Program-made: the position numbers and the translations under genes
Notes under the pieces: generated by a model
Databases searched by the model: none
What the model saw: only the letters and a program-made list of their open reading frames with translations
What the model was told of the DNA's origin: nothing
Part shown: positions 3,270-62,757 of the stretch, in pieces
How positions within the stretch are numbered: the first letter of the stretch is position 1
How the letters are laid out: every line of letters begins with the position of its first letter
Source of the DNA: Bacilli bacterium
GTDB taxonomy: Bacteria; Bacillota_I; Bacilli_A; RF39; UBA660
DNA: 64,000 bases
Direction of reading: 5' to 3'
Assembly: GCA_017484065.1 (NCBI GenBank)
Contig: JAFUTX010000031.1
Span: 98,581 to 162,580, forward strand

Positions 3270-3695
3270 ATGAATAAAAAAGGATTTACATTAGTAGAAA
3301 TACTAGCAGTTATAGTTATTATTGCTTTATTATCAGTACTTGCAATAGCAGGAGCTACGGGTATTAGTAATAGAATTAAAAAAAAGAATTACGATACTAA
3401 AGTAGAAACATTAAAAACTGCTGCTTTAGATTATGCTGAAAGTTACTATAATGAAATAAAAAATAGCGGAGAAAAATGTGTAAGTATCGAAGATTTAATA
3501 GTTGGTGGATATATTAAAGCTGATAATGATCATATAACAAAAATTCCTAATTATCAAAATATATGTATGAATGGTGATAAATATACTGCAAAATGTTCAG
3601 TTGCAGATCCAACAGATGATACTAAATACATGTATGGAGTAGTAGTTAAATATGAAAATAAACAATTAAAAGCAGTTTATAACGGAAGTTGTTAG
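3270..3695 (+). CDS. type IV prepilin-like protein (N-terminal cleavage/methylation domain), 4 Cys
   Basis: MNKKGFTLVEILAVIVII leader (G/FTLVE class), 141 aa, C-terminal cysteines. Confidence 0.75.
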   Translation: MNKKGFTLVEILAVIVIIALLSVLAIAGATGISNRIKKKNYDTKVETLKTAALDYAESYYNEIKNSGEKCVSIEDLIVGGYIKADNDHITKIPNYQNICMNGDKYTAKCSVADPTDDTKYMYGVVVKYENKQLKAVYNGSC

Positions 3696-4124
3696 GTGAA
3701 GAAAATGAATAAAAAAGGATTTACATTAGTAGAAGTATTAGCTGTAATAGTTATAATTGGTATACTTGGAACTATAGCTTTTGTTAGTACTACAGCAGTA
3801 TCTAAAAAGAATAAAGAAAAAATATATAATAGTAAAGTTGATTCAATTGAACTAGCAGCTGTTAATTATATTCAAGAAAATAAAAATGTTTTTGATACTA
3901 GCCATAATTGTATATTTTTTAACGTAGCTTTTTTAATAGATCAAGGATATTTAAAAAAAGATAATGATAATTGTGGAGATGAAATTCGGTGTATAGAAGA
4001 CCCACGTGCAAAAGGGGAATATTTGGATTATTATTTTATAAAGATAATATTAGAAAATTACAAATATAAGGCAACTATGACAAAAAATAGACCATCATCA
4101 TCAACATGTAAAAGAATTAATTAA
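3696..4124 (+). CDS. type IV prepilin-like protein, second paralog (true start may be MNKKGF at 3705)
   Basis: KKGFTLVEVLAVIVIIGIL leader; 142 aa; Cys-containing C-terminus. Confidence 0.75.
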   Translation: MKKMNKKGFTLVEVLAVIVIIGILGTIAFVSTTAVSKKNKEKIYNSKVDSIELAAVNYIQENKNVFDTSHNCIFFNVAFLIDQGYLKKDNDNCGDEIRCIEDPRAKGEYLDYYFIKIILENYKYKATMTKNRPSSSTCKRIN

Positions 4125-6643: not shown

Positions 6644-6688
6644 AAAGCTGTTATGAAATTAACTATTTAATTTCTAGCAGCTTTTTTA
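6644..6688. terminator. bidirectional nested hairpin terminator between convergent genes
   Basis: AAAAAGCTG..GAAATTAA-CTAT-TTAATTTC..CAGCTTTTTT. Confidence 0.6.
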
Positions 6689-7612
6689 TTTATTGTATAA
6701 TCGATATAAATTAATACTTGAACGATTTAGAAATCTTATTTTAGTTGTTTTAGTACCAATACCATTATTTATATAAAGTTCAGTATCATTTACTTGGTAA
6801 TAATCACTTATGTAAGTTCTAGCACCTTTTATTTTTATTAATCCTTTAGTATATGGTAATCTTATTTGTCCACCAATAGAGTGTCCAGCTAAAATTAAAT
6901 TATAATTATTATCAGCTAATTCATTAATAGTATCAGGTTCATGAATGATACCAATTTTATAAGGTATACTTATATCATTATATAATGATGTATCATTAAT
7001 TTTATCCATATCTATTTTACTTGATATGCCAGTTAATAAAATAGGGGTATTACCATTGTTATAAAAGATTAATTCGTGTTCATTATCTAGTACTTTAAAA
7101 TTAGCATCTTCCATTATAGTAATATAGTTTTCTATTGATTCATAATCATCGTCACCAATAATAGCGTAAGATCCAATTGTAACGTTTATCTTTTTTAATT
7201 CCTTAATAATAGTTTTTACATCTTCTTCGTCGACATTACTAAATTTATCAAATAAATCACCATTATATATAACTATATCAGGTTCTAAATAGTTTATTTT
7301 TTTTACAACTCTTTTAATGGTATTAATATTAGTAGTAGATCCTAAATGAATGTCAGAAAATTGCACTATTTTTAAACCATTAAAATTTTGGGGGATATTG
7401 CTATTTATAATGGGATATTCATTAACCTTAATAAAATAACTTTCAAAGTACCTAGTGTAGCCATACATAATAAGTATTATTAATAAAATATATTTTATAG
7501 TTTTGAATATTTTTTTTCTTTTTGGATTTTCTTGTTTTTCTTCTTCGTCTTTTAAAGTTATTTCATCTTCAATAATATTATCTTCTTCTATAACTTCTTT
7601 ACTTCTTCTCAT
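6686..7612 (-). CDS. membrane-anchored metallophosphoesterase (calcineurin-like, YkuE-type)
   Basis: FSDIHLG, GDLFD, GHS/IIHEPD motifs; N-terminal TM; 308 aa. Confidence 0.8.
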   Translation of the reverse strand: MRRSKEVIEEDNIIEDEITLKDEEEKQENPKRKKIFKTIKYILLIILIMYGYTRYFESYFIKVNEYPIINSNIPQNFNGLKIVQFSDIHLGSTTNINTIKRVVKKINYLEPDIVIYNGDLFDKFSNVDEEDVKTIIKELKKINVTIGSYAIIGDDDYESIENYITIMEDANFKVLDNEHELIFYNNGNTPILLTGISSKIDMDKINDTSLYNDISIPYKIGIIHEPDTINELADNNYNLILAGHSIGGQIRLPYTKGLIKIKGARTYISDYYQVNDTELYINNGIGTKTTKIRFLNRSSINLYRLYNK

Positions 7613-8325
7613 ATAAATCTCTCCAAATACATTGCTAACATTACTAAGACTATAGTTAAACTATTATGAAATATATGTATTGTCATAGATGTATAAATAT
7701 TATCAGTTTCATAATAAGCTTTAGCAAAGTAATAACCAAGGCCACTATAAGAAACTATATATAATAATTCTATATAATTACCACTTTGTATAGAGGATAT
7801 CATATGTATAGATCCAAATATAAGTCCTGTAACTAAGCAAAATAGTTTTTTATTATTAAATATTTTTCTGAAGTTAGCTCTAAATACTAATTCTTCACAA
7901 ATTGGTCCAATTAACATAACTGATAGAATAGATGAAATAGGGCGAGCAGTAATCATTGCTCTATTAGCAGCTTCATTACTAGCTATATTACCAACTACTG
8001 TTAATATACAAGCATTACATATTATCATAAATAAAAATCCTTTACCCCAGTTTTTAAATACTGCTTTTATATTCGTTTTAAAATTTTTAAAAAACTTAGG
8101 TAAGGAAGTAGCAAGTTCTTCCCAAAATATTACTGAAAATACACACAATAATATTAAATATATTTCAAGCCTAGCTAAATCAGCAAGTATTGTATTAGAA
8201 CTATTATATGCCTTATAAAATAGAGGTACAATAAATGAGGGTAAAAATATATATAATAATATTAAAATAATTGCTAAAATAAACCTAAATATCTTTTTTT
8301 CTATAATATCTAACATGTTAATCAA
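7609..8325 (-). CDS. CPBP family intramembrane glutamic endopeptidase (CAAX protease/Abi-like)
   Basis: EELVFR and FGxxH motifs in polytopic membrane protein; 4-nt overlap with downstream gene. Confidence 0.75.
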   Translation of the reverse strand: MINMLDIIEKKIFRFILAIILILLYIFLPSFIVPLFYKAYNSSNTILADLARLEIYLILLCVFSVIFWEELATSLPKFFKNFKTNIKAVFKNWGKGFLFMIICNACILTVVGNIASNEAANRAMITARPISSILSVMLIGPICEELVFRANFRKIFNNKKLFCLVTGLIFGSIHMISSIQSGNYIELLYIVSYSGLGYYFAKAYYETDNIYTSMTIHIFHNSLTIVLVMLAMYLERFI

Positions 8326-8416: not shown

Positions 8417-9133
8417 TTGGTGTATACTATGAAAAAAACATTTAATTTAGTCTTAACGACTGTATTATTGGGAGTATTTTGCTGTTTACCTGTAAAAGCA
8501 GCGGAGTGTAGTAATGATCTTTATCAAGCTGCTGATAAAGTAAAAGTAAGTAATGAGTTTGTGGAGGAAATTGATAACGAAACAGATATTGTTTTATCAA
8601 ATGGTTCTAAACCTATGATGTTGGTTGATAATATTAAAATAGAAAATGTTACAAATCAAATGACAATTGTAGTTACTGAAACCAAAAACAATACTTCAAA
8701 CACTTATAATTATAGTAATTCAAATAATGGTACAATAACTATTAAAGACACAATAGTAAGAAAAGTTAAAAACTATACAATAGATATATATGCTTCAGAT
8801 AGTACAAATTGTGGTGGAACTAAATTAAAAGTTAAATATCTAGAAACACTAGCTTATAATCCTTATTCAAAATCTACTAGATGTGAAGGTAATGAAAAAT
8901 TTGAATATTGTAAAGAATATTTAAATAGAGAAATTACTGAAGAAGAATTTCAAAAGAAACTTAGTGAATATTTAGGAGAAGATGAGGGGGAAAATGATAA
9001 AGAAGGAATATTAGCGTTTATTAACAAACACAAAGTATTATTAATTATAATTATTTCGTTGTTGGTAATAGGGGGTACTACTACCATAATAATTCGAAGA
9101 AGAAAAGGAGTAGATAAAAATGAAAAGAAATAA
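8417..9133 (+). CDS. signal-peptide protein with C-terminal TM anchor and charged tail (type I membrane protein); real start probably MKKTFN at 8429
   Basis: N-terminal signal sequence, Asn/Thr-rich ectodomain, C-terminal hydrophobic stretch + RRRKG; overlaps next ORF start by 14 nt (coupled). Confidence 0.5.
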   Translation: MVYTMKKTFNLVLTTVLLGVFCCLPVKAAECSNDLYQAADKVKVSNEFVEEIDNETDIVLSNGSKPMMLVDNIKIENVTNQMTIVVTETKNNTSNTYNYSNSNNGTITIKDTIVRKVKNYTIDIYASDSTNCGGTKLKVKYLETLAYNPYSKSTRCEGNEKFEYCKEYLNREITEEEFQKKLSEYLGEDEGENDKEGILAFINKHKVLLIIIISLLVIGGTTTIIIRRRKGVDKNEKK

Positions 9134-12100
9134 TTTAAAAAGATTAGGTATTGGTTTATTAAGTACAATACTTTTTGCTAGTTTTACTGGCGATGTAAAA
9201 GCTGGTACATGTGCAGATTATTCTCAAAGTTTTACAGTCACTGAAACTGGTGGAGCAAGCGGAATCACATCTCAAAATACTTATCAATCAAATTCCAATG
9301 GAAAATATCAATATTGGAACTATAGTGTTAAGTACAATGGTGGGAGTGGAAGTATTTCAGGTGTAGGATTCTGTATTGACCCTGCTAAAAGTGGTTGGAG
9401 CGGAACAGGATACTGTACAAGAGAGGTTAATCCATATGATTCAAGTAATGGAGTTAATGTTCAAAGATTTGATAGAGCTTTAACTTATTTATATGATAAA
9501 TATGCATATAACATTACTTCTAATAGAGAATTAGGAGATTTAACAGTTAAATTAATAACTTATTATTATGGTTTAGGAGAAAGCAATAATTCTTCTAATA
9601 ATACTATTAATTGGGGACCTTATAAATTAAGACATGAAACATTCTTAAAATACAGAAATAATGTTGGATATTCTGCTACTGATAAGAATGCACCTTTGTA
9701 TGATACTGCTAATAGCAATTATACAAAAGCATTATCTTATGCTAAAGAATCTGTAGAATATGCAAATAATGATGCAAATTGGACTACTATATCAAGTGAA
9801 AATATTGCATATATAAAAGATAAAGGTATAACAGAAAAAAATGCTGCAAATGCAAGTCAAAAAAGTAGTGAAGACTTATACTGGGCATTTACTGACGCTA
9901 GTGGTAAAGAAATTAATGCAACAAAAGCTGGAAATGTGTATGATTTAGGTGGATATACTGGAGAGTTTACTGCAACTGCTTATTTAAGAATACCATTTGT
10001 TGAAAAGCTAGCTTCAAATTATGAAACTGCATTAACAGCAGCAAAAAATATGTTTAATTTTAAATGTGATAATTCAACATGTCAATTAAGTAATATTACA
10101 AGTGTTGGAAATAAAAAATATATACTTGTAGGTATTTCTGTTAAAGGTAATACATCAACTTATAATGGTGGTATTGGTTCATTTAATGATACTAACAACT
10201 CTGCTTCTATACAATCTAAAGGTAATATTGTAATATTAAATTCAAAAAATGTTGATACTGGAAATCAAGGTACAGGAATGCAACGTTATGTATTCTTCTT
10301 AAACAATGAAATTAAAAAGAATGCTGATGGTAATAAAATTGCTGATATAATATTACCAAAATTACAAAGTGGTTGTAGAAAAGATGAATCTACTGGATTA
10401 TGCTATGGTCCAGATGGAAAAACTATAAGTTGTAGTGAATATGAAAAATATTGTCCATCAACTTGCTATATAAAAGATGGTAAATATTATGTATCAAATG
10501 GTAAAGAAGTTACGGAAAGTGAATATTTAAAACAATGTCCTATGACTTGTAAAGTCGAAACTGACGTAACTACAGGTAGAAAAATATATCGTGGTCAAGA
10601 TGGTAAAATAGTTGATGAAGCTACTTATAATACTCAATGTAAAAATGATAATGGACCTCAATGTGAAGTAAAAAATGGTAAATATTACATTGATGGTAAA
10701 TCAGTTAGCAAGAAAAAATACGAAGATGAATGTCCTTGTAGTTCATACATAAGAGCAGTAGATGCTTGTTATGAACCTGGTGATGCAGATAGTAAGAATT
10801 ATGACACTATCGCTGCTAAAATTTATGGACCTAGAAATGTAAAACAATGTTTCTTCCCAGATGGTGTAGAATTAAGTGATGATTCTAATAAAAAGGATGA
10901 AGCAAAAAATACATATAAACTATCAAATACTGATGAAGCAGTAGGAGTATTAGAAAATAAATATTGTGCTGTTTACTGTAAAGAAGATTATGTATTTGAA
11001 TATCCAAATGTTAAATATGGTAACCAAGGTGAATATTTCAAATTAAAATTAAATATTACTGGCGAGAAAACATGCTACGAAAAAGTAGATGTTGATAAAT
11101 TTAATAGTGATGTTGCAACACAACAACAAAAAGTTGTAGATGCTTATAATAAGTATTCTGCATTCAAGAAAATTAGTGATGCTTATAGATCATCTAGCAA
11201 AAATAGTTGTGGAGGAGCTTCATTTACTACATATTTTGATACTTATAACGTTAGTGGTAATAGAACTAGTAATACTGCTACAGTTAAAGTAGGTAAAGAT
11301 GAAAGTGAATTATTTGGTTGTGTAAGCGTTGCTGATTATCCAGATAGTTATCAATTTGCTGATTCAAACTCATTAGATAGTAAATTAAAAGCTACTAAAG
11401 AAGAATTTGACACAGCTAAAAAAGAATTAGATAAGATGTTAGAAGACATTGAAGACTGTATTCCAGAATCTGCTAAATCAGGTGGATGGGATGATGGTAT
11501 CAATGATAAATATACTACTTGGTATGATCCTGAAGTAAGTTATACTTACGATACTGAATACAAAAATCAAAAGGATATTACTATAGCTAAAGATAAAAAC
11601 TTCTCTGAGAATATCGATGATGATCAAGAAGTATGGTCATGTAATGGCGAAAGTAATAATTCATTAACAAGTTGTAATGGTACAAAATCTGATAAATTTA
11701 CATTTGATAGAAATCGTACATTTATAAACTGTACTGATAACGGTTGTTCAACTACTAGAAAAGATGTCCCAACAACTAAATACTATAAAGTAATTAGTTC
11801 AGTAGATGCTGATTATACAAGTAAAACACTATATAAATCTAGATATCCTGATGGTAAAACAACAAATACTGATATTAAAAATGATTATGAAATTAAAGAT
11901 AATTATAAAAACTTAGTTAATGGTGTTCCAATTCATATTGAAGAAACTGATGGATTACATAAATATTCAATAAACATTGACAACTTAGGACGTTATTACG
12001 ATAAAGATAAAGGTGATTTAGGACGTTTAATTGGTGGAAGTAAGAGTGTTTATGATAAATTTGATTTAGATAGTGAATACGTATGTAGTTACGATGTTAA

Positions 12101-12992
12101 TGATTGTGAAGAATACATTAAGGATCCAAATACTGGTGAATATTGTTGTATAACTGAAGCTATAAAAGGTGCTGATGGCAAATATTACTGTAGTAATCCA
12201 CAAAAAGATACATGTAAACTTGTAGTAGATGATAGAGACAATATTTGTTGTGAAGACGAAGAAGTGCTTCAACCAGATGGTACTAAACAATGTAGTGAAT
12301 GTACTGAATATACTGATAAAAATAACAATACATGTTGTAAAGAAGATGCTAAAGAGGATGATAAAGGCGATTTAGTATGTTGCCCTGAATGTAAGGTTGT
12401 TTGTTTCTGTCCATATACTGAAAAAGATGGTAAGAAGTGTGAAAAAATCGATGATTACACATGTAAATTTAGTAAAGATGAAGACAAATGTAAAGATGGA
12501 GAATGTAAGGTTGAATGTATTGGCTCTAACTGTATTAAATTAGAAGAAGGAAATGTTAATGTAAGACAAATTTCTGAAACTAATATTAATGCTAATGAAA
12601 CATCTAAAGTAAGTAACTGGACTGAGAAGAATGAAAAAGTTGAACAAACAATTAATCAAATTCAAAGTTCAGCTAGTGAAAATAAAACTCCTGAATATAA
12701 ATTTGTTTTATCTCCAAAAGCTTTAAGCTCTATTAGAGAATCAAATAAATCTTCTTGGAATGCATTATATCAATCTAAAGAAAATAATTACTTAACTTGT
12801 GATTATATTGGTACAAATACTCAAAGAATTGCATGTAAGAGTAATTATCTAGATTGGTTAGTTAAAGAAGTATATAATGGAAGTTGTCCAACTGATGGTA
12901 GTGGAGATTGTAAATATGATTTCAACAATACTGATAACTTCACAACTTGGACAGGTGCTTTAACTAAGGGCGTAGGTCCTGCTTGGAAATAA
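9120..12992 (+). CDS. giant (1290 aa) secreted Cys/Lys/Asn-rich protein with internal CPxxC-GKYY repeats; no LPXTG or TM anchor
   Basis: signal peptide MKRNNLKRLGIGLLSTILFASFTGDVKA; dozens of Cys in CxxC/CC pairs; uninterrupted ORF; immediately precedes Tad-like locus. Confidence 0.6.
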   Translation: MKRNNLKRLGIGLLSTILFASFTGDVKAGTCADYSQSFTVTETGGASGITSQNTYQSNSNGKYQYWNYSVKYNGGSGSISGVGFCIDPAKSGWSGTGYCTREVNPYDSSNGVNVQRFDRALTYLYDKYAYNITSNRELGDLTVKLITYYYGLGESNNSSNNTINWGPYKLRHETFLKYRNNVGYSATDKNAPLYDTANSNYTKALSYAKESVEYANNDANWTTISSENIAYIKDKGITEKNAANASQKSSEDLYWAFTDASGKEINATKAGNVYDLGGYTGEFTATAYLRIPFVEKLASNYETALTAAKNMFNFKCDNSTCQLSNITSVGNKKYILVGISVKGNTSTYNGGIGSFNDTNNSASIQSKGNIVILNSKNVDTGNQGTGMQRYVFFLNNEIKKNADGNKIADIILPKLQSGCRKDESTGLCYGPDGKTISCSEYEKYCPSTCYIKDGKYYVSNGKEVTESEYLKQCPMTCKVETDVTTGRKIYRGQDGKIVDEATYNTQCKNDNGPQCEVKNGKYYIDGKSVSKKKYEDECPCSSYIRAVDACYEPGDADSKNYDTIAAKIYGPRNVKQCFFPDGVELSDDSNKKDEAKNTYKLSNTDEAVGVLENKYCAVYCKEDYVFEYPNVKYGNQGEYFKLKLNITGEKTCYEKVDVDKFNSDVATQQQKVVDAYNKYSAFKKISDAYRSSSKNSCGGASFTTYFDTYNVSGNRTSNTATVKVGKDESELFGCVSVADYPDSYQFADSNSLDSKLKATKEEFDTAKKELDKMLEDIEDCIPESAKSGGWDDGINDKYTTWYDPEVSYTYDTEYKNQKDITIAKDKNFSENIDDDQEVWSCNGESNNSLTSCNGTKSDKFTFDRNRTFINCTDNGCSTTRKDVPTTKYYKVISSVDADYTSKTLYKSRYPDGKTTNTDIKNDYEIKDNYKNLVNGVPIHIEETDGLHKYSINIDNLGRYYDKDKGDLGRLIGGSKSVYDKFDLDSEYVCSYDVNDCEEYIKDPNTGEYCCITEAIKGADGKYYCSNPQKDTCKLVVDDRDNICCEDEEVLQPDGTKQCSECTEYTDKNNNTCCKEDAKEDDKGDLVCCPECKVVCFCPYTEKDGKKCEKIDDYTCKFSKDEDKCKDGECKVECIGSNCIKLEEGNVNVRQISETNINANETSKVSNWTEKNEKVEQTINQIQSSASENKTPEYKFVLSPKALSSIRESNKSSWNALYQSKENNYLTCDYIGTNTQRIACKSNYLDWLVKEVYNGSCPTDGSGDCKYDFNNTDNFTTWTGALTKGVGPAWK

Positions 12993-13010: not shown

Positions 13011-13421
13011 ATGAAGAGTTCATACTGGGGATATTTGTTAGTAATCTTAGGAATATTTGTAGTGGCTATACTTATGTTAACTCAAAGTGTAACCACTTCT
13101 AATACTCAAGATTATTACATAGTAAAGGAAGTAACAGAGGCGGCAATGGTTGATGCTATAGATTACGGTTATTATCGTGAATATGGCGAGCTAAAAATAA
13201 ATAAAGAAAAGTTTGTTGAAAACTTTTTGCGTAGATTTGCTGATTCTGTTGGTTTAAGTAAAACCTATACAGTTGAATTCTATGATTTATACGAAGCTCC
13301 ACCTAAAGTTAGTGTACAAGTAAGTAGTGATGCTGGATCATTTACTGTTGGTACTGATACAACAGAAAAAAGTGTTACTAACAGAATAGATGCTATCTTA
13401 GAAATTAGTGGGGAGGAATAA
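13011..13421 (+). CDS. small N-terminally membrane-anchored protein (possible pseudopilin/assembly factor)
   Basis: 136 aa, single N-terminal TM; position between giant protein and cpaB-like gene. Confidence 0.4.
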   Translation: MKSSYWGYLLVILGIFVVAILMLTQSVTTSNTQDYYIVKEVTEAAMVDAIDYGYYREYGELKINKEKFVENFLRRFADSVGLSKTYTVEFYDLYEAPPKVSVQVSSDAGSFTVGTDTTEKSVTNRIDAILEISGEE

Positions 13422-13423
13422 GA

Positions 13424-14209
13424 ATGGGTAATATAGTTGCATCTCTTAAGCGTTTACTAGCTAATAAGAATACTGTTACATTCTTAGGTGTAATAGCTGC
13501 AGTAATAGTATTATATGTTGGATATAGTATACGTGTTGGACAAGCAATTAAACAAATTCCTATTCCTTATGCTAAAAAAGAAATAGGAGCTATGACCGAA
13601 ATAACTGAAGATATGATAGGAACAGTAGATGTTCCTTCTACTTTGGTTAGTAAACATAATTTAATAAGTAGTAAACAACAACTAGTTGATATGTATGTTA
13701 CTAGTGGAACCTCTATTCCTGAAGGAGGATTTTTCCATAAGAATCAAGTAGTTCAAAAAGGTTCTTTACCAAATTCAGTTTTAGAAGATATACCTGATGG
13801 TTATACTATTTATAGTTTATCAGTTAATAATCATTCAACTTATGGTAATTCCATTTATCCTGGTGATTATATCGATTTATATTTTAAATCAACTGATGAT
13901 ACTGGTAGAGTACAATTTGGTAAATTTATTGAAAGTATTCAAGTATTAGCTGTTAGAGATAGTTCTGGTAGAGATGTATTTAGTCAAACTCAAGCTGGAG
14001 TTCCTGCTGAATTATTATTCTCTGTAACTGATGAGTATTTCCAATTATTACGTAAAGCTGATTATATTAGTGGTTATTCAATTGAAATTACTCCAGTACC
14101 AAGAAATAAATCTTATACTGCTAAAGAAGGAGATACTTCAATAGTAAGTAATGATATTAAACAATTTATTTTAGCAAAATCAAGTCAAATAGATAGTAAT
14201 TTAAATTAA
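13424..14209 (+). CDS. cpaB: Flp pilus assembly protein CpaB/RcpC-like (SAF domain)
   Basis: N-terminal TM then IPIPYAKKEIGAMTEITEDMIG..VDVP pattern typical of CpaB; 261 aa. Confidence 0.65.
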   Translation: MGNIVASLKRLLANKNTVTFLGVIAAVIVLYVGYSIRVGQAIKQIPIPYAKKEIGAMTEITEDMIGTVDVPSTLVSKHNLISSKQQLVDMYVTSGTSIPEGGFFHKNQVVQKGSLPNSVLEDIPDGYTIYSLSVNNHSTYGNSIYPGDYIDLYFKSTDDTGRVQFGKFIESIQVLAVRDSSGRDVFSQTQAGVPAELLFSVTDEYFQLLRKADYISGYSIEITPVPRNKSYTAKEGDTSIVSNDIKQFILAKSSQIDSNLN

Positions 14210-14231: not shown

Positions 14232-15410
14232 GTGTTTAGAGTGAATGAAGCTATATTTTCACAAATAGACTTTGGACCTTTGAAAGAATTTCTTAATGAT
14301 GAAGCTATCACCGATATATCTTATAGTAATAATGGACAAATTCATTTAAAAACTTTGGATAAAGGTGTATATGCAGTTAAAAGACCTGAAATTAACAATG
14401 CATTAATGGAGAAATTAGCATTTCAATGTTCCAATGTTATGGGTAAAACATTTAATATGGCCCATCCTTTTTTGGATGCTGAAAGTGCCGAGCTACGTTT
14501 AAATTTTATTCATGATTCTATTGCAACTAATGGTATAGCTTGCGTTATTCGTAAAACACCTGCTAAAATAAGATTAAATAAAGAAAAATTAATAAATGAA
14601 GAATATGTAACAGAAGATGTGTTAAACTTTTTATTACAATGCGTTAAGGGGCATTGTAATATTATCGTTAGTGGAGAAACTGGTTCTGGTAAAACTGAAT
14701 TAGTTAAGTATTTAGCTAGTAACACTAACGAAAATGAAAAAATAATAACAATAGAGGATACTCTTGAATTACACTTAGATAGAATATTTCCACATCGTGA
14801 TATAGTAGCTATGAAAACTAATAATATAGCTAGTTATTCTGATGTACTTGTTACATGTATGAGACAAAACCCTATTTGGATATTACTTTCCGAAGTACGT
14901 AGTGCTGAAGCAGTTATGGCAGTTCGTAACTCTATATCTTCAGGACACAACATTTTATCAACCATCCATAGTGATAAAGCAAGTAATATACCAATGCGTA
15001 TGTATAGTTTGTTGGAAAGTAATATTGATACTGAACAATTTATAAGAACTATACATAGATATGTTCAAATAGGAATATATGTAAAAGGTTATATGTCAAC
15101 TAAATTAAATAGATTTCAAAGAGAGATTATTGAAGTATGTGAATTTTATGTTGATGAAAATAATGAAGCTAAAGTTAATACTATATTTAGTAAATCATTA
15201 GATGGAACTTTTTCTTTAAATAATCCTACTAAGCATTTAAGAGATTATGTTAGTATTCAAGGTGTAACTTTTGAAGAAGATTTATTCCATATAAATAATA
15301 AAGTAGGTAACATTCAAAATCCTAATGCTAATCAAGTAACTCCACCTGTTGTTAATACACAGAATATTAAAGCTGAAGATGTTAATCAAGCTTTAATTGA
15401 AATGCTATGA
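14232..15410 (+). CDS. tadA: Tad/Flp secretion ATPase CpaF/TadA (VirB11/FlaI superfamily)
   Basis: Walker A GETGSGKT, Walker B ILLSEVRSAEA, His box STIHSDKAS; 392 aa. Confidence 0.85.
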   Translation: MFRVNEAIFSQIDFGPLKEFLNDEAITDISYSNNGQIHLKTLDKGVYAVKRPEINNALMEKLAFQCSNVMGKTFNMAHPFLDAESAELRLNFIHDSIATNGIACVIRKTPAKIRLNKEKLINEEYVTEDVLNFLLQCVKGHCNIIVSGETGSGKTELVKYLASNTNENEKIITIEDTLELHLDRIFPHRDIVAMKTNNIASYSDVLVTCMRQNPIWILLSEVRSAEAVMAVRNSISSGHNILSTIHSDKASNIPMRMYSLLESNIDTEQFIRTIHRYVQIGIYVKGYMSTKLNRFQREIIEVCEFYVDENNEAKVNTIFSKSLDGTFSLNNPTKHLRDYVSIQGVTFEEDLFHINNKVGNIQNPNANQVTPPVVNTQNIKAEDVNQALIEML

Positions 15411-15423
15411 AAGGAGTGAATTT

Positions 15424-16317
15424 ATGGAACTTATATTATTACTCATCATAGCTTTAACTGTAGTAGGATACCGTAAAGGTGGTAAAGCTGGTGTATCTAA
15501 ATTTTTCACTGGCCAAGTTACATCTATTTATAATAAATATGTACCTTATAGTTATGAAGTTGTTAAAGCAAAAGTTAAAGAATTAGGACAAGATTATAGT
15601 GTAAAACAATATACTACACAAGTAATTATCTTTGCAGTAGGAGGATTTGGTATATCATTTTTATATTTCTATAATATAATGATATCAGCTATTTATGCTG
15701 TAATTGCTGTAATGTTTGTACCATATCTTGCATATCTTAGAAGTCAAAGATTATATAGTGAATACATATTTGAACAAATACAAATATATACTACTAATAC
15801 TATAATGGAATTTAATACTACACAAAGTTTTGTTAAATCATTAGAAGGTGTTAGAGATAGTGGTATATTAGAAGATCCGGTTTTGACAGATGTTAAAAGA
15901 ATGATTGATATGTCTTATCAAAATGGTGTTATAGATGAATCGATAGAGTATTTTAATGCTAAATATCCATATTATATGGTTAAGAATATGCATCAATTAT
16001 TCCTACAAATAACTAAAGAAGGTGCTAAAGATAGTGGCGATGCCTTAGAGAACATGTCAATGGATATTGACTCATTAGTTGAAGGTGTATATCGTGACCA
16101 AATGGATCGTAAAGAATTCCATAAAAAGTTCTTAACATTTGGTGTTATGTTATATTTCTTAGTTATGACAATGCAATTCTTATTAGGTAGAGATGAATAT
16201 AAGAAAATGTTAGATTTATGGTATGTTAATCTAATCTTACATGTAATTATAATCATTAATACTTACTTCTTAGTAAGTGGAGAAAAGTATTATAATGAAG
16301 ATGTGGGGGTAGAATAA
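15424..16317 (+). CDS. tadB: TadB-like polytopic membrane platform protein (T2SS-F fold); ORF track start 15397 likely upstream extension
   Basis: AGGAG RBS 7 nt before ATG 15424; TM-cytoplasmic domain-TM topology; position after ATPase. Confidence 0.55.
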   Translation: MELILLLIIALTVVGYRKGGKAGVSKFFTGQVTSIYNKYVPYSYEVVKAKVKELGQDYSVKQYTTQVIIFAVGGFGISFLYFYNIMISAIYAVIAVMFVPYLAYLRSQRLYSEYIFEQIQIYTTNTIMEFNTTQSFVKSLEGVRDSGILEDPVLTDVKRMIDMSYQNGVIDESIEYFNAKYPYYMVKNMHQLFLQITKEGAKDSGDALENMSMDIDSLVEGVYRDQMDRKEFHKKFLTFGVMLYFLVMTMQFLLGRDEYKKMLDLWYVNLILHVIIIINTYFLVSGEKYYNEDVGVE

Positions 16318-16318
16318 T

Positions 16319-17107
16319 ATGTATATAGAGATATTTATAATTGGTGGAATAATTCTATTTGTATTATTCTATACTGGTCAAATTAATAGAAATAAGTTCT
16401 TTAATGATAATCATGCTTATTTTTCTAAGCTTAAAGAAGAAGATTATGATTTCTTAGTAAAAGTTAAATATGGTGAAGGTGTTAATGCTGATATCTTATT
16501 TAATAAGAGAATTAAAAATGCAGTTATGGTAGGAGCAGTTGTTCTAATTGTTACCTTAGGTGAAGCTTCTTACCTAACAGTGTTATTATCTTTAGGAGTA
16601 GGAGTATTTATTTTTAAATCGGGTTATTCTAGTTTAAAAAGATACTATAAAGCTCATTTAAATCAAGTTAATACAATGTTACCTTATTATTTAAAAAGCT
16701 TAGAGATTCTTATTCAACACTATACTGTACCAGTAGCTATTGGTAAGAGTTTAAATGATGCTCCAGGTATATTTAAAGATGGTTTACAAGAGCTCGTAAA
16801 TGCAATTAATGCTGGTGATGATTCAATTCAACCGTATATGGATTTTGCCAAGAAATATCCAGTAAGAGATTCAATGCGTATGATGCGTTTATTATATCGT
16901 TTAAGTTTAGGTAAACAAGAGAGAAAACAAGAACAATTAGTTACATTCTCTCATTCAATATCTAACTTACAACAAAAAGCAAGAGAATCTAAATATAAAG
17001 CCCGTCTTGATAAGATGGAAGGTAAAACAATGAAAATGCTTATGGTAACAGGAGCAGGAGTAATGGGTTTACTACTTTTATCTGTATTTATGTTAATGGG
17101 AATGTAA
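16319..17107 (+). CDS. tadC: TadC-like membrane platform protein
   Basis: 262 aa, N-terminal TM, helical cytoplasmic domain, C-terminal TMs; pairs with TadB-like. Confidence 0.5.
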   Translation: MYIEIFIIGGIILFVLFYTGQINRNKFFNDNHAYFSKLKEEDYDFLVKVKYGEGVNADILFNKRIKNAVMVGAVVLIVTLGEASYLTVLLSLGVGVFIFKSGYSSLKRYYKAHLNQVNTMLPYYLKSLEILIQHYTVPVAIGKSLNDAPGIFKDGLQELVNAINAGDDSIQPYMDFAKKYPVRDSMRMMRLLYRLSLGKQERKQEQLVTFSHSISNLQQKARESKYKARLDKMEGKTMKMLMVTGAGVMGLLLLSVFMLMGM

Positions 17108-17186
17108 AGTATAATTAAAATATTGATAATTATTAAAAAAAAAGTTATAATATAAATAGTTAAACTAAAGGAGGAATTAATAATTT

Positions 17187-17396
17187 ATGAAAGAAGCAAC
17201 AGGAGAACTAAATATGACAGTTATTGTTGTTATAGCATTAGCAGCTATTTCAGCATTATTTGTAACATTTATTATGCCAATGATACAAAATAGTATTACT
17301 ACTAATTCATGCCATTCTTCAGGATATAATACAAAAGATGTCAATGGTAAATTAGAATGTGACTATAGTAGTACATATACTGCTCCATCAAATTAA
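17187..17396 (+). CDS. Flp/Tad-type prepilin-like protein 1 (69 aa, leader MKEATGELN, 2 Cys)
   Basis: short charged leader ending in G, followed by hydrophobic helix TVIVVIALAAISALFVTFI; RBS AGGAGG upstream. Confidence 0.5.
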   Translation: MKEATGELNMTVIVVIALAAISALFVTFIMPMIQNSITTNSCHSSGYNTKDVNGKLECDYSSTYTAPSN

Positions 17397-17407
17397 GGTG
17401 ATATAAT

Positions 17408-17629
17408 ATGAAAGAGGCAACGGGAGAACTTAATTCAACAGTTATTGTTGTTATAATAGTAGGGCTTGTTATTGCCTTTTTCTTTTCTGTTGTATGGCCA
17501 ATGATTGATAGAGATGTTAGCGATACTGCAGATTGTAGTAAAGCAGTATGTGGGACAGATGTTGGTGATGACGGAAAAGTTGATTGCAAAAACGGAAACA
17601 AAACTATAAGATGTCCTTATAAGGGGTAG
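17408..17629 (+). CDS. Flp/Tad-type prepilin-like protein 2 (73 aa, identical leader, 4 Cys)
   Basis: MKEATGELNSTVIVVIIVGLVIAFFF; paralog of previous. Confidence 0.5.
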   Translation: MKEATGELNSTVIVVIIVGLVIAFFFSVVWPMIDRDVSDTADCSKAVCGTDVGDDGKVDCKNGNKTIRCPYKG

Positions 17630-17639
17630 GTGGTCATAA

Positions 17640-18056
17640 TTGAAAGAATCAATTGAAGGGACTACTTTATTAACAATTGTTATGGTATTTTTATTTGTAT
17701 TCACAGCAGTTATATGTGTATCTTTAAACTATTCAAATGCCTTTAAAACTAAAAATGATTTGATTAAGTATATAGAAAGACATGGTATAGAAGCTGCTAA
17801 AGATGCGGAATATATAGAAAATCTTAAACAAAATGGTTATACTGCAACTGGAACATGTCCTAATGAAGAGGGTTTTACACCGGTTGGCGATGATGACGGA
17901 ACTTTGTTTTGTTATAAAGAAAATAAAAGTAACAGTTCAGCAGAATTAAGTAATAGCAAATATTATGATATTGTTGTTTTTTATAAAATTGATGTACCAT
18001 TGGTTAATAAAATATCTTTTCAAGTTCGTGGTAGTACAAAAAGTATTTATAATTAG
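17640..18056 (+). CDS. TadE-like pseudopilin (TTG start), ATGTCP motif, 2 Cys
   Basis: N-terminal TM LLTIVMVFLFVFTAVICV then globular domain; RBS AAGGGGTAGGTGG. Confidence 0.45.
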   Translation: MKESIEGTTLLTIVMVFLFVFTAVICVSLNYSNAFKTKNDLIKYIERHGIEAAKDAEYIENLKQNGYTATGTCPNEEGFTPVGDDDGTLFCYKENKSNSSAELSNSKYYDIVVFYKIDVPLVNKISFQVRGSTKSIYN

Positions 18057-18071
18057 AAATGCGGTGATATA

Positions 18072-18650
18072 ATGAGAGAAAGTATGGGTTCGACTTGGAT
18101 AATGAGTTTAATGATTAGCTTTATCTTTATATTCACTGCTTTTTTAATACTTGCAATGAATTTTACTAAAGTTTATAAGATGAAAAATGAAGTAACTACT
18201 ATTTTAGAAAAATACGAAGGTGTAACAAGGAGTTCTAAAGGAGAAAAAAGCAATGGCTGGGGGTCTATATCACTAGTTAAAAATTATTTATCAGCTAGTG
18301 GTTATTCAGCAACTGGTAATTGTCCAGTAGATACTGAATCTGATCCTAAAGGTGAGAGATTAGGTTTGTGGTATGGAGCTACCGATTTAGTTGCTAATAA
18401 TGGAGTTTTAAAAAAAGTAAGTGATTCTAATGAAAAGTTTTATTTTTGTGTTAGAGCTAATAATATTGACAATTCCAAAATGACTTATTTTGATATAAGG
18501 TTATTTTTAAAATTTAATTTACCTGTAATTGGAAATATTACTGCTTTTAGAATTAATGGAAGTACCATAGATATAAAAAATGCCTATTGTAACGGATTTG
18601 AAAGTGGATATAGTACTGGTAAATGTATAGCTACTAAAGTAACTACTTAA
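18072..18650 (+). CDS. TadE/TadG-like pseudopilin paralog, ATGNCP motif, 5 Cys
   Basis: N-terminal TM IMSLMISFIFIFTAFLILA; shares GYxATGxCP motif with previous ORF. Confidence 0.45.
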   Translation: MRESMGSTWIMSLMISFIFIFTAFLILAMNFTKVYKMKNEVTTILEKYEGVTRSSKGEKSNGWGSISLVKNYLSASGYSATGNCPVDTESDPKGERLGLWYGATDLVANNGVLKKVSDSNEKFYFCVRANNIDNSKMTYFDIRLFLKFNLPVIGNITAFRINGSTIDIKNAYCNGFESGYSTGKCIATKVTT

Positions 18651-19748: not shown

Positions 19749-20096
19749 ATGACTGAAACAGCTGAATTATGTAATAATGCCGCTCCATTTTTGAAAATTA
19801 TAGGTGTTGTATTATTAGTTGTAAAAATTGCAGTACCTATTATTCTTTTATTAACAGGTGCTATAGCTTATGGATCAGCAGTTATCTCAAACGATGAAAA
19901 AGCAATGAAAGGTGCTACTAGTAAATTAATTAGTAAAATTATTGCAGCAATAGTAATATTCTTATTACCTTATTTATTAAATACACTATTTAATTTAATT
20001 GATGATTATGCTCAATTAGGTAAAAGTTATAAGGCTTGCTGGAATTGTGTATTAAAACCTGACACTTGCCCAAAAACTGAAACTGTAAGTAACTAA
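19749..20096 (+). CDS. small 2-TM protein with C-terminal Cys motif (paralog 1 of 3)
   Basis: 115 aa; shared IxFxLP(T/Y) TM2 motif; tail CWNCVLKPDTCP. Confidence 0.4.
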   Translation: MTETAELCNNAAPFLKIIGVVLLVVKIAVPIILLLTGAIAYGSAVISNDEKAMKGATSKLISKIIAAIVIFLLPYLLNTLFNLIDDYAQLGKSYKACWNCVLKPDTCPKTETVSN

Positions 20097-20204: not shown

Positions 20205-20636
20205 ATGTTAATTCTTGCCGAATTTTGTGAAGGTGGAGTTCTAAAAGTATTTAGAGCTACTGGTTATATATTATTAATTATAAAAATTATAATACCAATT
20301 GTATTATTAGTTATGGGTATAGTCGATTTATTTCAGGCTATATTTGGCACAGATCCTAAGGCATTAAATACATCAATTCATGCATTTATTCAAAGAATAA
20401 TTGCGGGAGTTATAGTATTTTTTGTTCCAACATTTCTTCATATAGTATTATGGTTATTAAGTGAAGCAGGAACTGCCGATGGCAATAAATTTGTTGGAGA
20501 AAATTTTCCTGTATGTAATGAATGTTTATATCGTCCAAGTGGTACAGATTGTAATAGTCATGTTGACAGCACTAAAGACTGGATGGAAAATGTTGAAGAT
20601 AAGATTGATGAATTAGATAAAAAAGCTGGTGATTAA
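20205..20636 (+). CDS. small 2-TM protein with C-terminal Cys motif (paralog 2)
   Basis: 143 aa; tail CNECLYRPSGTDCNSH. Confidence 0.4.
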   Translation: MLILAEFCEGGVLKVFRATGYILLIIKIIIPIVLLVMGIVDLFQAIFGTDPKALNTSIHAFIQRIIAGVIVFFVPTFLHIVLWLLSEAGTADGNKFVGENFPVCNECLYRPSGTDCNSHVDSTKDWMENVEDKIDELDKKAGD

Positions 20637-21017
20637 ATGAAAAAAAATAAATTAGAAATAATCATTATTATAATATTAACTTTTTTTGTTGGATTTTTTA
20701 TTAATCCAACAAATACATTAGCTGCGCAATGTGTTGATATTATAGGTAATCCTGAATCAGAGGGGACATTTGGTTATTATTTACAATTAATATTTAATAT
20801 TATGAAATATGCTGCTATTATATTATTTGCTGTTTTTTCGGTTAAAGATTTCTTTACTGCAATAATTAACCAAGATCAAAAAGGAGTAAAAAAAGCGTTT
20901 CCAGTTTTTACTAAAAGAGCAGTTTCAGTAGTTATCATATTTTTGCTACCAACTATAGTAAAATTTGTTATTTCAATCTTTGGAAAATTACAAGATCCAA
21001 CTTGTAATATATTCTAG
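20637..21017 (+). CDS. small signal-peptide 2-TM protein (paralog 3)
   Basis: 126 aa; N-terminal signal peptide ending AAQC; tail DPTCNIF. Confidence 0.4.
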   Translation: MKKNKLEIIIIIILTFFVGFFINPTNTLAAQCVDIIGNPESEGTFGYYLQLIFNIMKYAAIILFAVFSVKDFFTAIINQDQKGVKKAFPVFTKRAVSVVIIFLLPTIVKFVISIFGKLQDPTCNIF

Positions 21018-53998: not shown

Positions 53999-54742
53999 AT
54001 GAAAAAGAAAAGATTAAAAATATGGATAGTAATTATTTTTGCAATTATATGTTTAGGGTTATGTATATATTCAATTTATAATATTGTTATTTGGAAATTA
54101 AATGTAGATTCTAATAATGATATTAATGAAAAAGTAAAAGAGTATATCAATATAGATGATGATGGTACAGAGAATTATGATATTGATTTTAAATCTTTAA
54201 GAATTATTAATTCTGAAGTAGTAGGATATATAAAAGTTAATGGAACTAACATTGATTACCCTGTAGTACAAGGAACTAACAATAGTTATTATCTTAAACA
54301 TAATTTAAAAAAAGAATATAATATTGCCGGATGGATATTTGCTGATTATAGAAATAAACTAGATGGTAGCGATAAAAATTTAATTATATATGGTCATAAC
54401 ACTAAAGATGGTAGTATGTTTGGCTCTTTAAAAAATATATTAGATAGTACTTGGCAAAATAATAAAAATAATTTACAAGTAATCCTTGTTACAGAAAAAG
54501 GTCAATTTAAATATCAAGTATTTTCTACATATAGTATAGAACCAGAAGATTATTATATAAATACTAACTTTAATAGTGATACTGATTATGAAAAGTTTTT
54601 AAAGACAATTAAGAATAGATCTAATCATGATTATAGTGTATCAATTAGTACTAATGATAAAATACTTACATTATCTAGTTGTATGAATGCTGGTCAAAAA
54701 AGAGTGGTATTACATGCTAAATTAATAGAAGGAGAGGATTAA
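53999..54742 (+). CDS. srtB: class B sortase
   Basis: N-terminal TM, YGHN His, LTLSSC (TLxTC) catalytic Cys, R near C-terminus; 247 aa. Confidence 0.85.
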   Translation: MKKKRLKIWIVIIFAIICLGLCIYSIYNIVIWKLNVDSNNDINEKVKEYINIDDDGTENYDIDFKSLRIINSEVVGYIKVNGTNIDYPVVQGTNNSYYLKHNLKKEYNIAGWIFADYRNKLDGSDKNLIIYGHNTKDGSMFGSLKNILDSTWQNNKNNLQVILVTEKGQFKYQVFSTYSIEPEDYYINTNFNSDTDYEKFLKTIKNRSNHDYSVSISTNDKILTLSSCMNAGQKRVVLHAKLIEGED

Positions 54743-61836: not shown

Positions 61837-62757
61837 TTAAACTAATTCATATTCTCTAGATATAATTCTTTCATCGCTAGAGTATTTAACTATGTACTTA
61901 TTATCTTTTCTTACTAGGATAATACCAATAGTTTTATCATGATTAATCTTTTTAACATTAGTATCTATATAATTCATATAAACTTGTATTTGTCCTAAAT
62001 GTTCTTTTTTTAATTCAGTTACTTTTAGTTCAATAACAACGTAACAATTATATTCAATATTAAATAGCAGTAGATCGATGTAATTAAAAGTATTACCTAT
62101 CTTTATTTTATATTCGTTACTAACATAGGTATAACCAGATCCAAGCTGAGATAAGAAATTATCTAAATCATCAAGTATTGTTTCTTTTAATACATATTCC
62201 TTAATATGTTCTTTATCTTTAATATTACTACTTTTTATAACTATGGGATTAGGTACTAAATCAGTAATAGTAGTATCTTCTTTATTAATTAATTTTAATT
62301 TGGTTTCATCATCTAATCTTTCATATTCTTTTAATTTAATTCTTTCGTGTAGTTGTCTTTTGGAAATATTTTTTATTGATATTTGTTTTATATAGTAATT
62401 TATCTTATTAATATCTTTTAATGGTAGTAAAAGTAAGCAATGACTCCATGTTAAATGTGGCGCCAGCGGTGCCACTTTCTCATTAGAAAAAACTAAATAA
62501 AACTTTCTTATTTTATACAAAGTACTTTTATCATATTTTCTACCAACCTCAGTAATTAGTTTTTCAGCATATTTTCCAATAATATTATTGCCATAATGTT
62601 TACCAGCTTCTGCTAACATTTTACCTACGTCATAATAAGTTTCTAATCTATGTCTTTCTTTAGACATATCTTTTATAGCACTATAAGCTATATCTTCAAG
62701 TAATCTTTCTTTTATTTCACTATAATAATTATCTTTTAATTTGCTTGTTTTATTCAT
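61837..62757 (-). CDS. DUF1016/YhcG-like PD-(D/E)XK nuclease family protein, tandem copy A
   Basis: 306 aa; C-terminal E..D..ELK nuclease core (IDLLLFN..VVIELK). Confidence 0.6.
   Translation of the reverse strand: MNKTSKLKDNYYSEIKERLLEDIAYSAIKDMSKERHRLETYYDVGKMLAEAGKHYGNNIIGKYAEKLITEVGRKYDKSTLYKIRKFYLVFSNEKVAPLAPHLTWSHCLLLLPLKDINKINYYIKQISIKNISKRQLHERIKLKEYERLDDETKLKLINKEDTTITDLVPNPIVIKSSNIKDKEHIKEYVLKETILDDLDNFLSQLGSGYTYVSNEYKIKIGNTFNYIDLLLFNIEYNCYVVIELKVTELKKEHLGQIQVYMNYIDTNVKKINHDKTIGIILVRKDNKYIVKYSSDERIISREYELV

Follow-up and report, generated by a model that had tools for sequence, protein, structure and literature searches.

The window analysed here is a stretch of 64,000 nucleotides from a Bacilli bacterium (contig JAFUTX010000031.1 of assembly GCA_017484065.1, positions 98,581 to 162,580 of the forward strand). 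It contains two tandem genes, at window positions 17187 to 17629, whose products share the N-terminus MKEATGELN and are very probably subunits of a type IV filament. Each of the two open reading frames (ORFs) is preceded by a Shine-Dalgarno-like sequence, and in both products the common start is followed by about 24-25 uncharged, mostly hydrophobic residues, an invariant proline and a short, polar, cysteine-containing tail. The two genes and a site upstream of them are as follows (aa, amino acids):

17123..17151, plus strand: promoter-like site, TTGATA-17-TATAAT, 11/12 sigma-70-like matches, 36 bp 5' of the first pilin gene
17187..17396, plus strand: putative pilin paralogue 1, 69 aa, 2 Cys, MKEATGELNMTVIVVIALAAISALFVTFIMPMIQNSITTNSCHSSGYNTKDVNGKLECDYSSTYTAPSN; proposed leader MKEATG, hydrophobic helix starting ELNMTV, invariant P31, predicted small beta-hairpin head
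17408..17629, plus strand: putative pilin paralogue 2, 73 aa, 4 Cys, MKEATGELNSTVIVVIIVGLVIAFFFSVVWPMIDRDVSDTADCSKAVCGTDVGDDGKVDCKNGNKTIRCPYKG, C-terminal end C-P-Y-K-G

The promoter-like site is only a hint, as such matches are frequent in this AT-rich, 25% G+C DNA. The first-pass annotation had described tandem ORFs with identical MKEATGELN starts, two and four cysteines, and no EY motif, and both ORF translations bear this out; an FTLxE motif is absent as well. At the DNA level, the leaders of the two paralogues differ in three synonymous codons (gaa/gag, aca/acg, cta/ctt) and in no non-synonymous one, so that their identity is upheld at the protein level.

Conservation and predicted structure of the probable pilin family

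A word-seeded search yielded 44 homologues, all metagenomic, all annotated as 'hypothetical' and all with the start MKEAT.EL. As word seeding favours shared words, an exhaustive hidden Markov model (HMM) search was run over 1.84 billion representative proteins (clusters at 50% identity), which returned 891 of them at E<=0.001 and 335 at E<=1e-10. All of the best 150 of the 891 matches align from residue 1 of both query and target, from which it follows that the leader length is fixed. The same N-terminus was found in 112 gene copies across 77 related loci, with one copy in 46 loci, two in 27 and three in 4; taken over the 44 of 44 word-seeded homologues, the best 150 of 891 HMM matches and these 112 copies, its sharing is far beyond chance. 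When one genome per species was scanned, the pilin family was confirmed in at least 527 stretches, the best 80 of which stem nearly all from metagenome-assembled genomes (MAGs) of uncultured gut Bacilli, labelled as Bacilli, Clostridium sp. CAG:628/CAG:1000, Mollicutes/Tenericutes or Ca. Coprovivens. Searched for in the full text of the literature, the MKEATGELN motif gave no match.

Position frequencies were computed on 187 family members, with the following counts:

position 1: M 186
position 2: K 178, R 8 (K or R in 186)
position 3: E 182
position 4: A 185
position 5: T 171, S 8
position 6: G 180, S 7
position 7: E 178, D 6
position 8: L 184
position 9: N 174, S 9
position 11: T 175
position 25: F 178
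position 30: W 158
position 31: P 186

Each residue from M1 to N9 is thus at least 91% conserved, or at least 93% with T5 excluded, and the check proposed in the first-pass annotation, whether G6 and E7 are invariant among homologues, came out in its favour, both being near-invariant (G180/S7 and E178/D6 of 187). For A4, T5 and G6, all four synonymous codons are in use among 101 gene copies of the related loci; since synonymous codons vary freely, the conservation lies on the protein and not on a DNA or RNA element. The C-termini are hypervariable, with an even number of cysteines in 177 of the 187 members and, except in a single member, no cysteine in the first 36 residues. The even count argues for an exported C-terminus and, with the position of the cysteines beyond residue 36, fits a disulfide-bonded head. 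The end C-x-[WYF]-[KR]-G is found in 59 of the 187 members, including the second paralogue of the window.

An AlphaFold2 (AF2) model of paralogue 1, built on the family alignment (predicted local distance difference test score, pLDDT, 87.7), has a helix at residues 5-44 and a beta-hairpin at 47-63, a predicted shape that corresponds to a minimal pilin 'lollipop' of a long N-terminal helix and a beta-hairpin. A Foldseek search of this confident model against the PDB gave no match at E<=0.001, the fold being too small to inform. The two proteins match no family in Pfam or NCBIfam; the N_methyl (PF07963) and TIGR02532 models are unmatched at E<=1, and so are the Flp models of both libraries at their usual thresholds; the family HMM did not match Azospirillum Flp, and a PDB profile search gave no Flp-type match. 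The earlier suggestion of a possibly undescribed signal type is in agreement with this, as the leader differs from every described motif, lacking both Glu5 and EY and matching none of the N_methyl, TIGR02532 or Flp models.

A weak likeness of near-equal spacing was observed between pilin residues 8-35 (17208-17290), with the pattern LN-T-(17-18 residues)-FVWP-x-I, and the N-terminal anchor of F-type ATP synthase subunit b. It was found independently in the PDB (E 0.1) and NCBIfam (E 0.15-0.25) searches, in neither case at a significant level, and probably reflects convergence of transmembrane segments.

The operon and its plasmid relatives

The two genes lie within a conserved co-directional operon of 14-16 genes, which was compared with 83 related loci. 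Its other members are:

8417..9133, plus strand: first operon gene, 238-aa protein with Sec-type signal peptide and C-terminal transmembrane anchor; same-position homologues in 20/83 loci
9120..12992, plus strand: 1290-aa secreted protein, very rich in Cys, Asn and Lys, with repeated C-x-x-C-rich stretches
13011..13421, plus strand: DUF5411 protein, 136 aa, PF17424 E 1.8e-56, N-terminal transmembrane segment, MKSSYWG start; in 51/83 loci
13424..14209, plus strand: CpaB/RcpC-like protein, 261 aa, N-terminal transmembrane segment; RcpC PF16976 27.9 bits (cut-off 28.8), TIGR03177 E 6.8e-10
14232..15410, plus strand: CpaF/TadA/VirB11-family secretion ATPase, 392 aa, T2SSE PF00437 E 9e-29
15397..16317, plus strand: 306-aa polytopic membrane protein in TadB position, putative platform subunit, no Pfam match
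16319..17107, plus strand: 262-aa polytopic membrane protein in TadC position, putative platform subunit, no Pfam match
17640..18056, plus strand: minor pilin-like protein, 138 aa, MKESIEG start followed by a hydrophobic helix; homologues in 76/83 loci
18072..18650, plus strand: minor pilin-like protein, 192 aa, MRESMG start followed by a hydrophobic helix
18682..19695, plus strand: 337-aa soluble protein; in 79/83 loci
19749-20096, 20205-20636 and 20637-21017, plus strand: three paralogous proteins of 115, 143 and 126 aa with two transmembrane segments each and Cys-rich tails

The order DUF5411, CpaB, ATPase, 306-aa protein, 262-aa protein, pilin(s), minor pilin(s), 337-aa protein and VirB2-like proteins is kept in about 60-80 of the 83 loci. 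What makes the pilin identity of the two proteins very probable is this position: a CpaF/VirB11-family ATPase and two polytopic proteins come directly before them, CpaB lies further upstream, and two minor pilins follow. Among solved structures the best relative of the ATPase is CpaF (8e-17), followed by FlaI and VirB11, and its scores against the VirB11, TadA-type and FlaI models are alike; its median identity is 76% across 69 loci, and that of both polytopic proteins about 60%. The 262-aa protein has at least 7200 homologue clusters, and 116 of the 120 listed are exactly 262 aa long. For the polytopic proteins, a PDB profile search came back empty and an AF2 model (pLDDT 65) led to uninformative Foldseek matches. 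Their only link to T2SSF is a weak chain from the TadB-position protein of the family to its pXO1 counterpart (E 1e-8) and from there to T2SSF (E 0.014). The 262-aa protein weakly matches the pXO1 'TadC' (E 2e-3) and the homologue of gene 39 in pLS20-type plasmids (E 5e-4). The 262-aa protein has its two most invariant stretches, YLKSLEILIQHYTVPVA and YPVRDSMRMMRLLYRLSLG (residues 127-143 and 181-214), where confidence in its AF2 model is lowest (pLDDT <50).

The minor pilins, which like the polytopic proteins matched no meaningful family in Pfam and NCBIfam scans, carry a related start. Over 116 sequences it reads M-[R/K]-E(79%)-[A/S]-[I/M/F/V]-G(85%; S 9%, A 3%), and a hydrophobic helix comes next. 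Major and minor subunits thus have in common a prefix that is always six residues long and closes with a small residue, and they diverge right after it, with ELNMT in the major and G/T/S-T-W-L in the minor pilins, which have L, I or F near +5.

The operon also bears on the alternative that the two genes encode small bitopic proteins of no filament, either N-out accessory or anchor proteins similar to ATP synthase b or precursors of Cys-rich secreted peptides. Such proteins would be compatible with the subunit b likeness, with the basic residues that often follow the hydrophobic segment, with the lack of a match to any pilin model and, superficially, with the combination of a conserved N-terminus and a hypervariable Cys-rich C-terminus. 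However, the ATP synthase similarity is below significance, and the genes occupy the exact major-pilin position of Tad-type loci, in one to three copies and with the hypervariable C-termini typical of surface-exposed subunits. The larger minor pilin-like proteins with the same prefix and the even cysteine count, which argues for an exported C-terminus, point the same way, as does the absence of peptide-maturation enzymes or transporters from the operon, and we consider a non-filament role very unlikely. A precursor of a ribosomally synthesized and post-translationally modified peptide (RiPP) or bacteriocin was rejected, because the operon lacks maturation enzymes and transporters and the conserved part spans the full transmembrane helix.

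Among the small proteins of the operon, the DUF5411 protein is the most conserved: it has 1325 homologues, and identity is 61% or more throughout the best 120 listed. The start of the DUF5411 family, MKE[TS][YF]W[GTS]Y, recalls the pilin prefix, and in some loci the protein is fused to a C-terminal extension of 330-430 residues (L006:4391-6097, L008:3021-4427, L028:3853-5319). The 238-aa protein belongs to no Pfam or NCBIfam family. The 1290-aa protein, in which no Pfam or NCBIfam domain was found, is a candidate adhesin or pilus-associated surface protein; it occupies the slot of the Tie adhesin/isopeptide fimbrial protein in pLS20-type modules, to which it has no sequence similarity. The 337-aa protein has no match in Pfam, NCBIfam or the PDB, and the TadZ of pXO1 has no relative in the loci; the 337-aa protein is possibly a TadZ-like accessory protein. 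The three proteins with two transmembrane segments weakly resemble VirB2 (T4SS_pilin, PF18895, E 0.002-0.03, below the cut-off) and have homologues in 36-59 of the 83 loci. In a closed MAG chromosome (CP091739.1, L051, 3900-11900), the pilin gene is intact and the DUF5411, CpaB, ATPase, polytopic and 337-aa genes appear split into several short ORFs, which could be due to decay or to assembly errors.

To place the machine, the ATPase was searched with tblastn against 72,556 plasmids. The best matches (31-33% identity, E 1e-32 to 1e-39) lie on Firmicutes plasmids, namely those of the pLS20 family, a Paraclostridium plasmid, a Peribacillus plasmid and pXO1- and pXO2-type plasmids. The pXO1 locus (Bacillus anthracis/cereus) encodes CpaB, a ParA-type ATPase, a CpaF/VirB11 ATPase, two polytopic proteins, two tandem proteins of 67-68 aa, a DUF4320 protein and a DUF5411-like protein; no function is assigned to it in its annotation or in the literature searched. 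Its CpaB, which passes the RcpC cut-off, matches the window CpaB with a phmmer E of 3.3e-27, its ATPase gives E 4e-40 against family members from the related loci, and its DUF5411-like protein matches the family at E 7e-5; the pXO1 and pLS20 counterparts match the DUF5411 model weakly. The tandem small proteins of pXO1, MLTKMKNWLKNEDSQLSSENG and MLIALAVIIVLVIGPFVWKAIQG, have a 21-residue leader that ends in ENG directly before the hydrophobic stretch and, like the window pilins, no EY. Their hydrophobic segment ends in FVW-x-x-IQ, similar to FVWPMIQ in the family, but they differ in the long leader and in the absence of a Cys-rich head, and have no significant sequence match to the pilin family. 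A further difference is the ParA/MinD-type, TadZ-like ATPase of pXO1, of which no counterpart is recognisable in the window.

In pLS20-type plasmids, the corresponding block comprises an adhesin, gene 36 (DUF5411-like, E 6e-5), gene 37 (VirB11-like), genes 38 and 39 (polytopic), gene 40 (DUF4320), tandem 47-aa proteins and gene 45. Genes 36-45 of the pLS20 family form a putative VirB11 module of which all but the ATPase are listed as 'unknown' (Val-Calvo 2021, PMC8557374). Their order is that of the window operon, with gene 40 (DUF4320) resembling the minor pilins; gene 45 passes the cut-off of PF18895 (T4SS_pilin), its Peribacillus counterpart is annotated as TrbC/VirB2, and its position is that of the VirB2-like genes of the window. 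Unlike the window, the modules examined have no annotated CpaB in the operon region. The tandem transmembrane proteins of 47-48 aa in these operons share the start ML[DE]xNxxR (L087:12134-12446, L086:12268-12671, L090:10077-10223), which loosely parallels MKEATGE in having an acidic residue at 3, a small one at 6 and an acidic or aromatic one at 7. These tiny proteins may be unrecognised filament subunits of Gram-positive conjugation systems.

The window system itself was rejected as a conjugative element. Queries with VirD4, extended VirB6/p028 and Tie (VirB4 was not queried) gave no tblastn match in the window or in 84 related loci, within 10 kb, and the pilin had no match among the 72,556 plasmids. 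Since VirD4, VirB6 and Tie are absent from the loci and the pilin family from plasmids, the window system is a stand-alone chromosomal relative of the plasmid modules.

The leader and the peptidase

Class III signal peptides consist of a leader, hydrophilic or neutral, with Gly or Ala as its last residue, followed by 20-25 hydrophobic residues, with Glu5 being frequent but not obligatory (Pelicic 2023, PMC10191384). MKEATG matches this description of a leader, position 6 being small in both the major (G180/S7) and the minor pilins (G 85%, S 9%, A 3%), and the stretch from L8 to I33 directly after it carries no charge, in agreement with the expected hydrophobic length. Glu+5 is not present; the residue at +5 is Thr (175/187), and a conserved acid stands at +1 (E178/D6). 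Six residues is the classical type IVa leader length, as in PilA of Pseudomonas aeruginosa. Judged by its sequence, MKEATG fits a very short class III-type signal of type IVa length, with Glu+1 and Thr+5.

Prepilin peptidases of the A24 family were searched for in several ways. A scan of the window ORFs, including all polytopic candidates, with the Peptidase_A24 model of Pfam gave no match, and no genuine GxGD-type motif was found in the polytopic ORFs of the window and of the 84 loci (1.38 Mb); one apparent match, in L007, was rejected as a VirB2-like protein. A phmmer search of the 84 loci with the genuine A24 peptidase of the Azospirillum tad locus found nothing, and following related contigs past both window ends revealed no A24 peptidase. 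With A24 absent from the window and the 84 loci, this is a conserved system without a prepilin peptidase of its own. MSH loci never encode a peptidase, and tadV can lie apart as a 'loner' (Denise 2019, PMC6668835); as some type IV filament loci thus borrow one, a peptidase-free locus is no refutation of cleavage. The following genes of the window bear on the source of the enzyme:

3270-3695, plus strand: canonical type IV/Com-type prepilin, MNKKG/FTLVEILAV..., passes TIGR02532 and N_methyl, resembles ComGC
3696-4124, plus strand: canonical type IV/Com-type prepilin, MKKMNKKG/FTLVEVLAV..., passes TIGR02532 and N_methyl, resembles ComGC
6686-7612, minus strand: calcineurin-like phosphoesterase, divergent from the operon start; in 9/83 loci
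7609-8325, minus strand: CPBP/Rce1-like intramembrane protease, divergent from the operon start; in 9/83 loci

Canonical GFTLVE prepilins need an A24 peptidase, and the presence of two of them implies one elsewhere in the genome. They sit between the GTPase genes engB and der, with no further pilus genes nearby.

The first-pass annotation had read the two genes as prepilins with a recognition site for a dedicated peptidase. As prepilins they very probably are subunits of a type IV filament machine, and that part stands; the dedicated peptidase found no support, there being no A24 or other candidate protease in the conserved operon, be it that of the window or those of the 84 related loci. One could still suppose a new, non-A24 class of dedicated enzyme, either an unannotated operon protein or encoded elsewhere, that reads the invariant MKEATG. 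That the full leader is extremely conserved where major and minor pilins otherwise diverge would suit such an enzyme, and the operon does hold conserved proteins without assignable function (the 337-aa, DUF5411 and VirB2-like proteins), but none of the unannotated ones has a protease motif or matches a protease family. The adjoining CPBP/Rce1-like protease was rejected as a candidate, as it accompanies the operon in only 9 of 83 loci; for the same reason neither it nor the phosphoesterase is regarded as part of the operon. Co-variation at position 6 between major and minor pilins of one operon was looked for and not found: G, S and A occur side by side within single operons, which gives no sign of co-evolution with a specialised enzyme. 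A shared A24 enzyme is also the simpler account. A ComC/PilD-type enzyme encoded elsewhere is more likely to be the peptidase than a dedicated one, and a new class of peptidase appears highly improbable to us.

We favour the reading, at a probability of roughly 55%, in which the two paralogues are major pilins of a Tad-like filament specific to Firmicutes and MKEATG is cut off after Gly6 by a housekeeping A24 peptidase encoded elsewhere. Inserted in the membrane, the prepilin would expose its six N-terminal residues, M-K-E-A-T-G, to the cytoplasm and the small, disulfide-bonded head to the outside. The A24 enzyme, probably of the ComC/PilD type that must serve the GFTLVE pilins at 3270-4124, would cleave it after Gly6, and would likewise cleave the two minor pilins with their M-[KR]-E-[AS]-x-G prefix. 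The mature subunit, E-L-N-M-T-V-I-V-V..., would then be extracted and polymerised by the CpaF-like ATPase via the two polytopic proteins in TadB and TadC position, with CpaB, DUF5411 and the minor pilins as presumed accessory or priming parts.

A number of observations weigh against this reading. No pilin model, solved pilin or profile-detectable pilin matches the family, and neither polytopic protein matches T2SSF, with an hhalign probability of 12.7% between the two. The conserved Glu stands at +1 and not at +5, the leader is net neutral, and all six of its residues are near-invariant across hundreds of clusters; the latter is atypical for a leader that is discarded, as conservation is usually confined to G-1 and a basic residue. 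Near the N-terminus of the minor pilins there is no acidic residue, and Ser6 occurs in 4-9% of members, in operons whose other pilins carry Gly. The pLS20-type small subunits start with ML[DE]xNxxR, without Gly, which hints that this group of systems may not need A24 cleavage. Finally, we infer the presence of an A24 enzyme in the genome, none having been found in the 64-kb window or the 84 loci.

Some of these points would be accounted for if the two proteins were uncleaved subunits of the same machine, in which M-K-E-A-T-G-E is kept as a short cytoplasmic tail and no prepilin peptidase is needed. The platform or ATPase would dock onto this tail, or K2 would pair in charge with E3/E7 in the filament core. 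In line with this, the entire nine-residue N-terminus, and not G6 alone, is at least 91% conserved; M-[KR]-E-[AS] is common to the minor pilins and in part to DUF5411; the peptidase is absent from the operon and the 84 loci; the small subunits of the pLS20-type sister modules have a conserved N-terminus without Gly; and the AF2 helix begins already at residue 5. On the other hand, all characterised type IV filament subunits are processed (Pelicic 2023, PMC10191384), only G, S and A are tolerated at position 6, as for a -1 site, three charged residues would occupy the normally hydrophobic filament core, and the canonical prepilins of the same genome imply that a peptidase is on hand. We regard retention of the leader as unlikely, though it is the main rival. 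A wider form of the idea, in which the window system is the chromosomal stand-alone form of a Firmicutes-specific type IV filament branch whose plasmid forms (pLS20 genes 36-45 and pXO1) were overlooked, and whose N-terminal signal is not processed by A24 enzymes but stays on as a docking tail or is cut off by some other, unknown enzyme, seems doubtful to a similar degree.

Relation to known systems and significance

Under the favoured reading of a Tad-like filament with borrowed A24 peptidase, one of the closest known systems is the Flp/Tad pilus (type IVc; Caulobacter CpaA-F/PilA, Aggregatibacter Flp1-TadV). Its small major subunit (~60-90 aa) is likewise encoded beside a CpaF/TadA-type ATPase, and it also has in common with the window system two polytopic proteins in a row, a CpaB/RcpC-like protein and a pair of pseudopilin-like minor subunits with the same type of leader. 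The window pilins differ from those of the Flp/Tad pilus in having ELNMTV after G6 in place of G/xxxxEY, in a six-residue, near-invariant leader with Glu+1 and in a Cys-rich head; the system as a whole matches no Flp, TadE or T2SSF model, and its locus lacks TadV and a recognisable TadZ and contains DUF5411, the giant secreted protein and the VirB2-like proteins as extra conserved parts. As the host is monoderm, no secretin is part of the system. With type IVa/Com prepilins (GFxxxE, PF07963/TIGR02532), the window pilins share the leader length, a basic residue near the start, a small -1 residue, a hydrophobic helix of ~25 residues with a conserved Pro and the predicted lollipop shape. They differ in having Glu instead of Phe or Met at +1 and Thr instead of Glu at +5, in a leader that contains an acidic residue, has no basic one at -2 and is conserved throughout, and in the absence of an HMM match.

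Two descriptions from gut Clostridia come close, a DUF5411-containing predicted secretion operon of Roseburia/Ruminococcus/Eubacterium (Miller 2022, PMC9523054) and a pilus cluster of TANB77 in which CpaB, TadZ, TadA and TadBC were assigned by fold (PMC11680825). Both are divergent Tad-like clusters of gut Firmicutes that are uncultured or little studied, with CpaF, platform and unannotated pilin-like proteins. They belong, however, to Clostridia lineages, their pilins are 143-236 aa long or undescribed, and the MKEATGELN family is not mentioned.

With respect to the host, two sporulation genes, yabP and yqfD, precede ybeY-dgkA-era in a related contig, immediately before the point where the window begins (L084:3072-4473). 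Because of these two genes, the host is probably a spore-forming member of the Bacillota and not a wall-less Mollicute, as some MAG labels suggest. Elsewhere the window contains a sortase gene (53999-54742) and, on the minus strand, tandem paralogous DUF1016/YhcG-type genes (PD-(D/E)XK-like nuclease; 61837-62757 and 62809-63726), of which a related contig has three (L085:6886-9602).

The kind of system, a Tad-like pilus with a class III-type signal, is already known. Undescribed in the literature and family libraries searched are the pilin family, its invariant leader with Glu+1 and Thr+5, the extra operon parts and the link to pXO1 and pLS20. The family is abundant in prevalent uncultured gut Bacilli (891 clusters, with thousands of homologues of the machine), yet all members are annotated as 'hypothetical', and standard pilin detectors (GFxxxE, Flp and PilFind-type rules) are blind to it. 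The six-residue, invariant leader with Glu+1 and without Glu5 broadens the range of class III signals and offers a simple test case for what a prepilin peptidase and an assembly platform read; if the signal were not processed by A24 enzymes, it would define a new class of pilin signal. Homology also offers a hypothesis for unexplained gene blocks of pXO1 and pLS20-type conjugative plasmids, and if a Firmicutes-specific branch does include these plasmid forms, this would suggest that some Gram-positive conjugation systems build a Tad-like filament. For the gut Bacilli themselves, recognition of the family gives them a probable surface filament with hypervariable, disulfide-bonded tips, of relevance to adhesion, host interaction and immune recognition.

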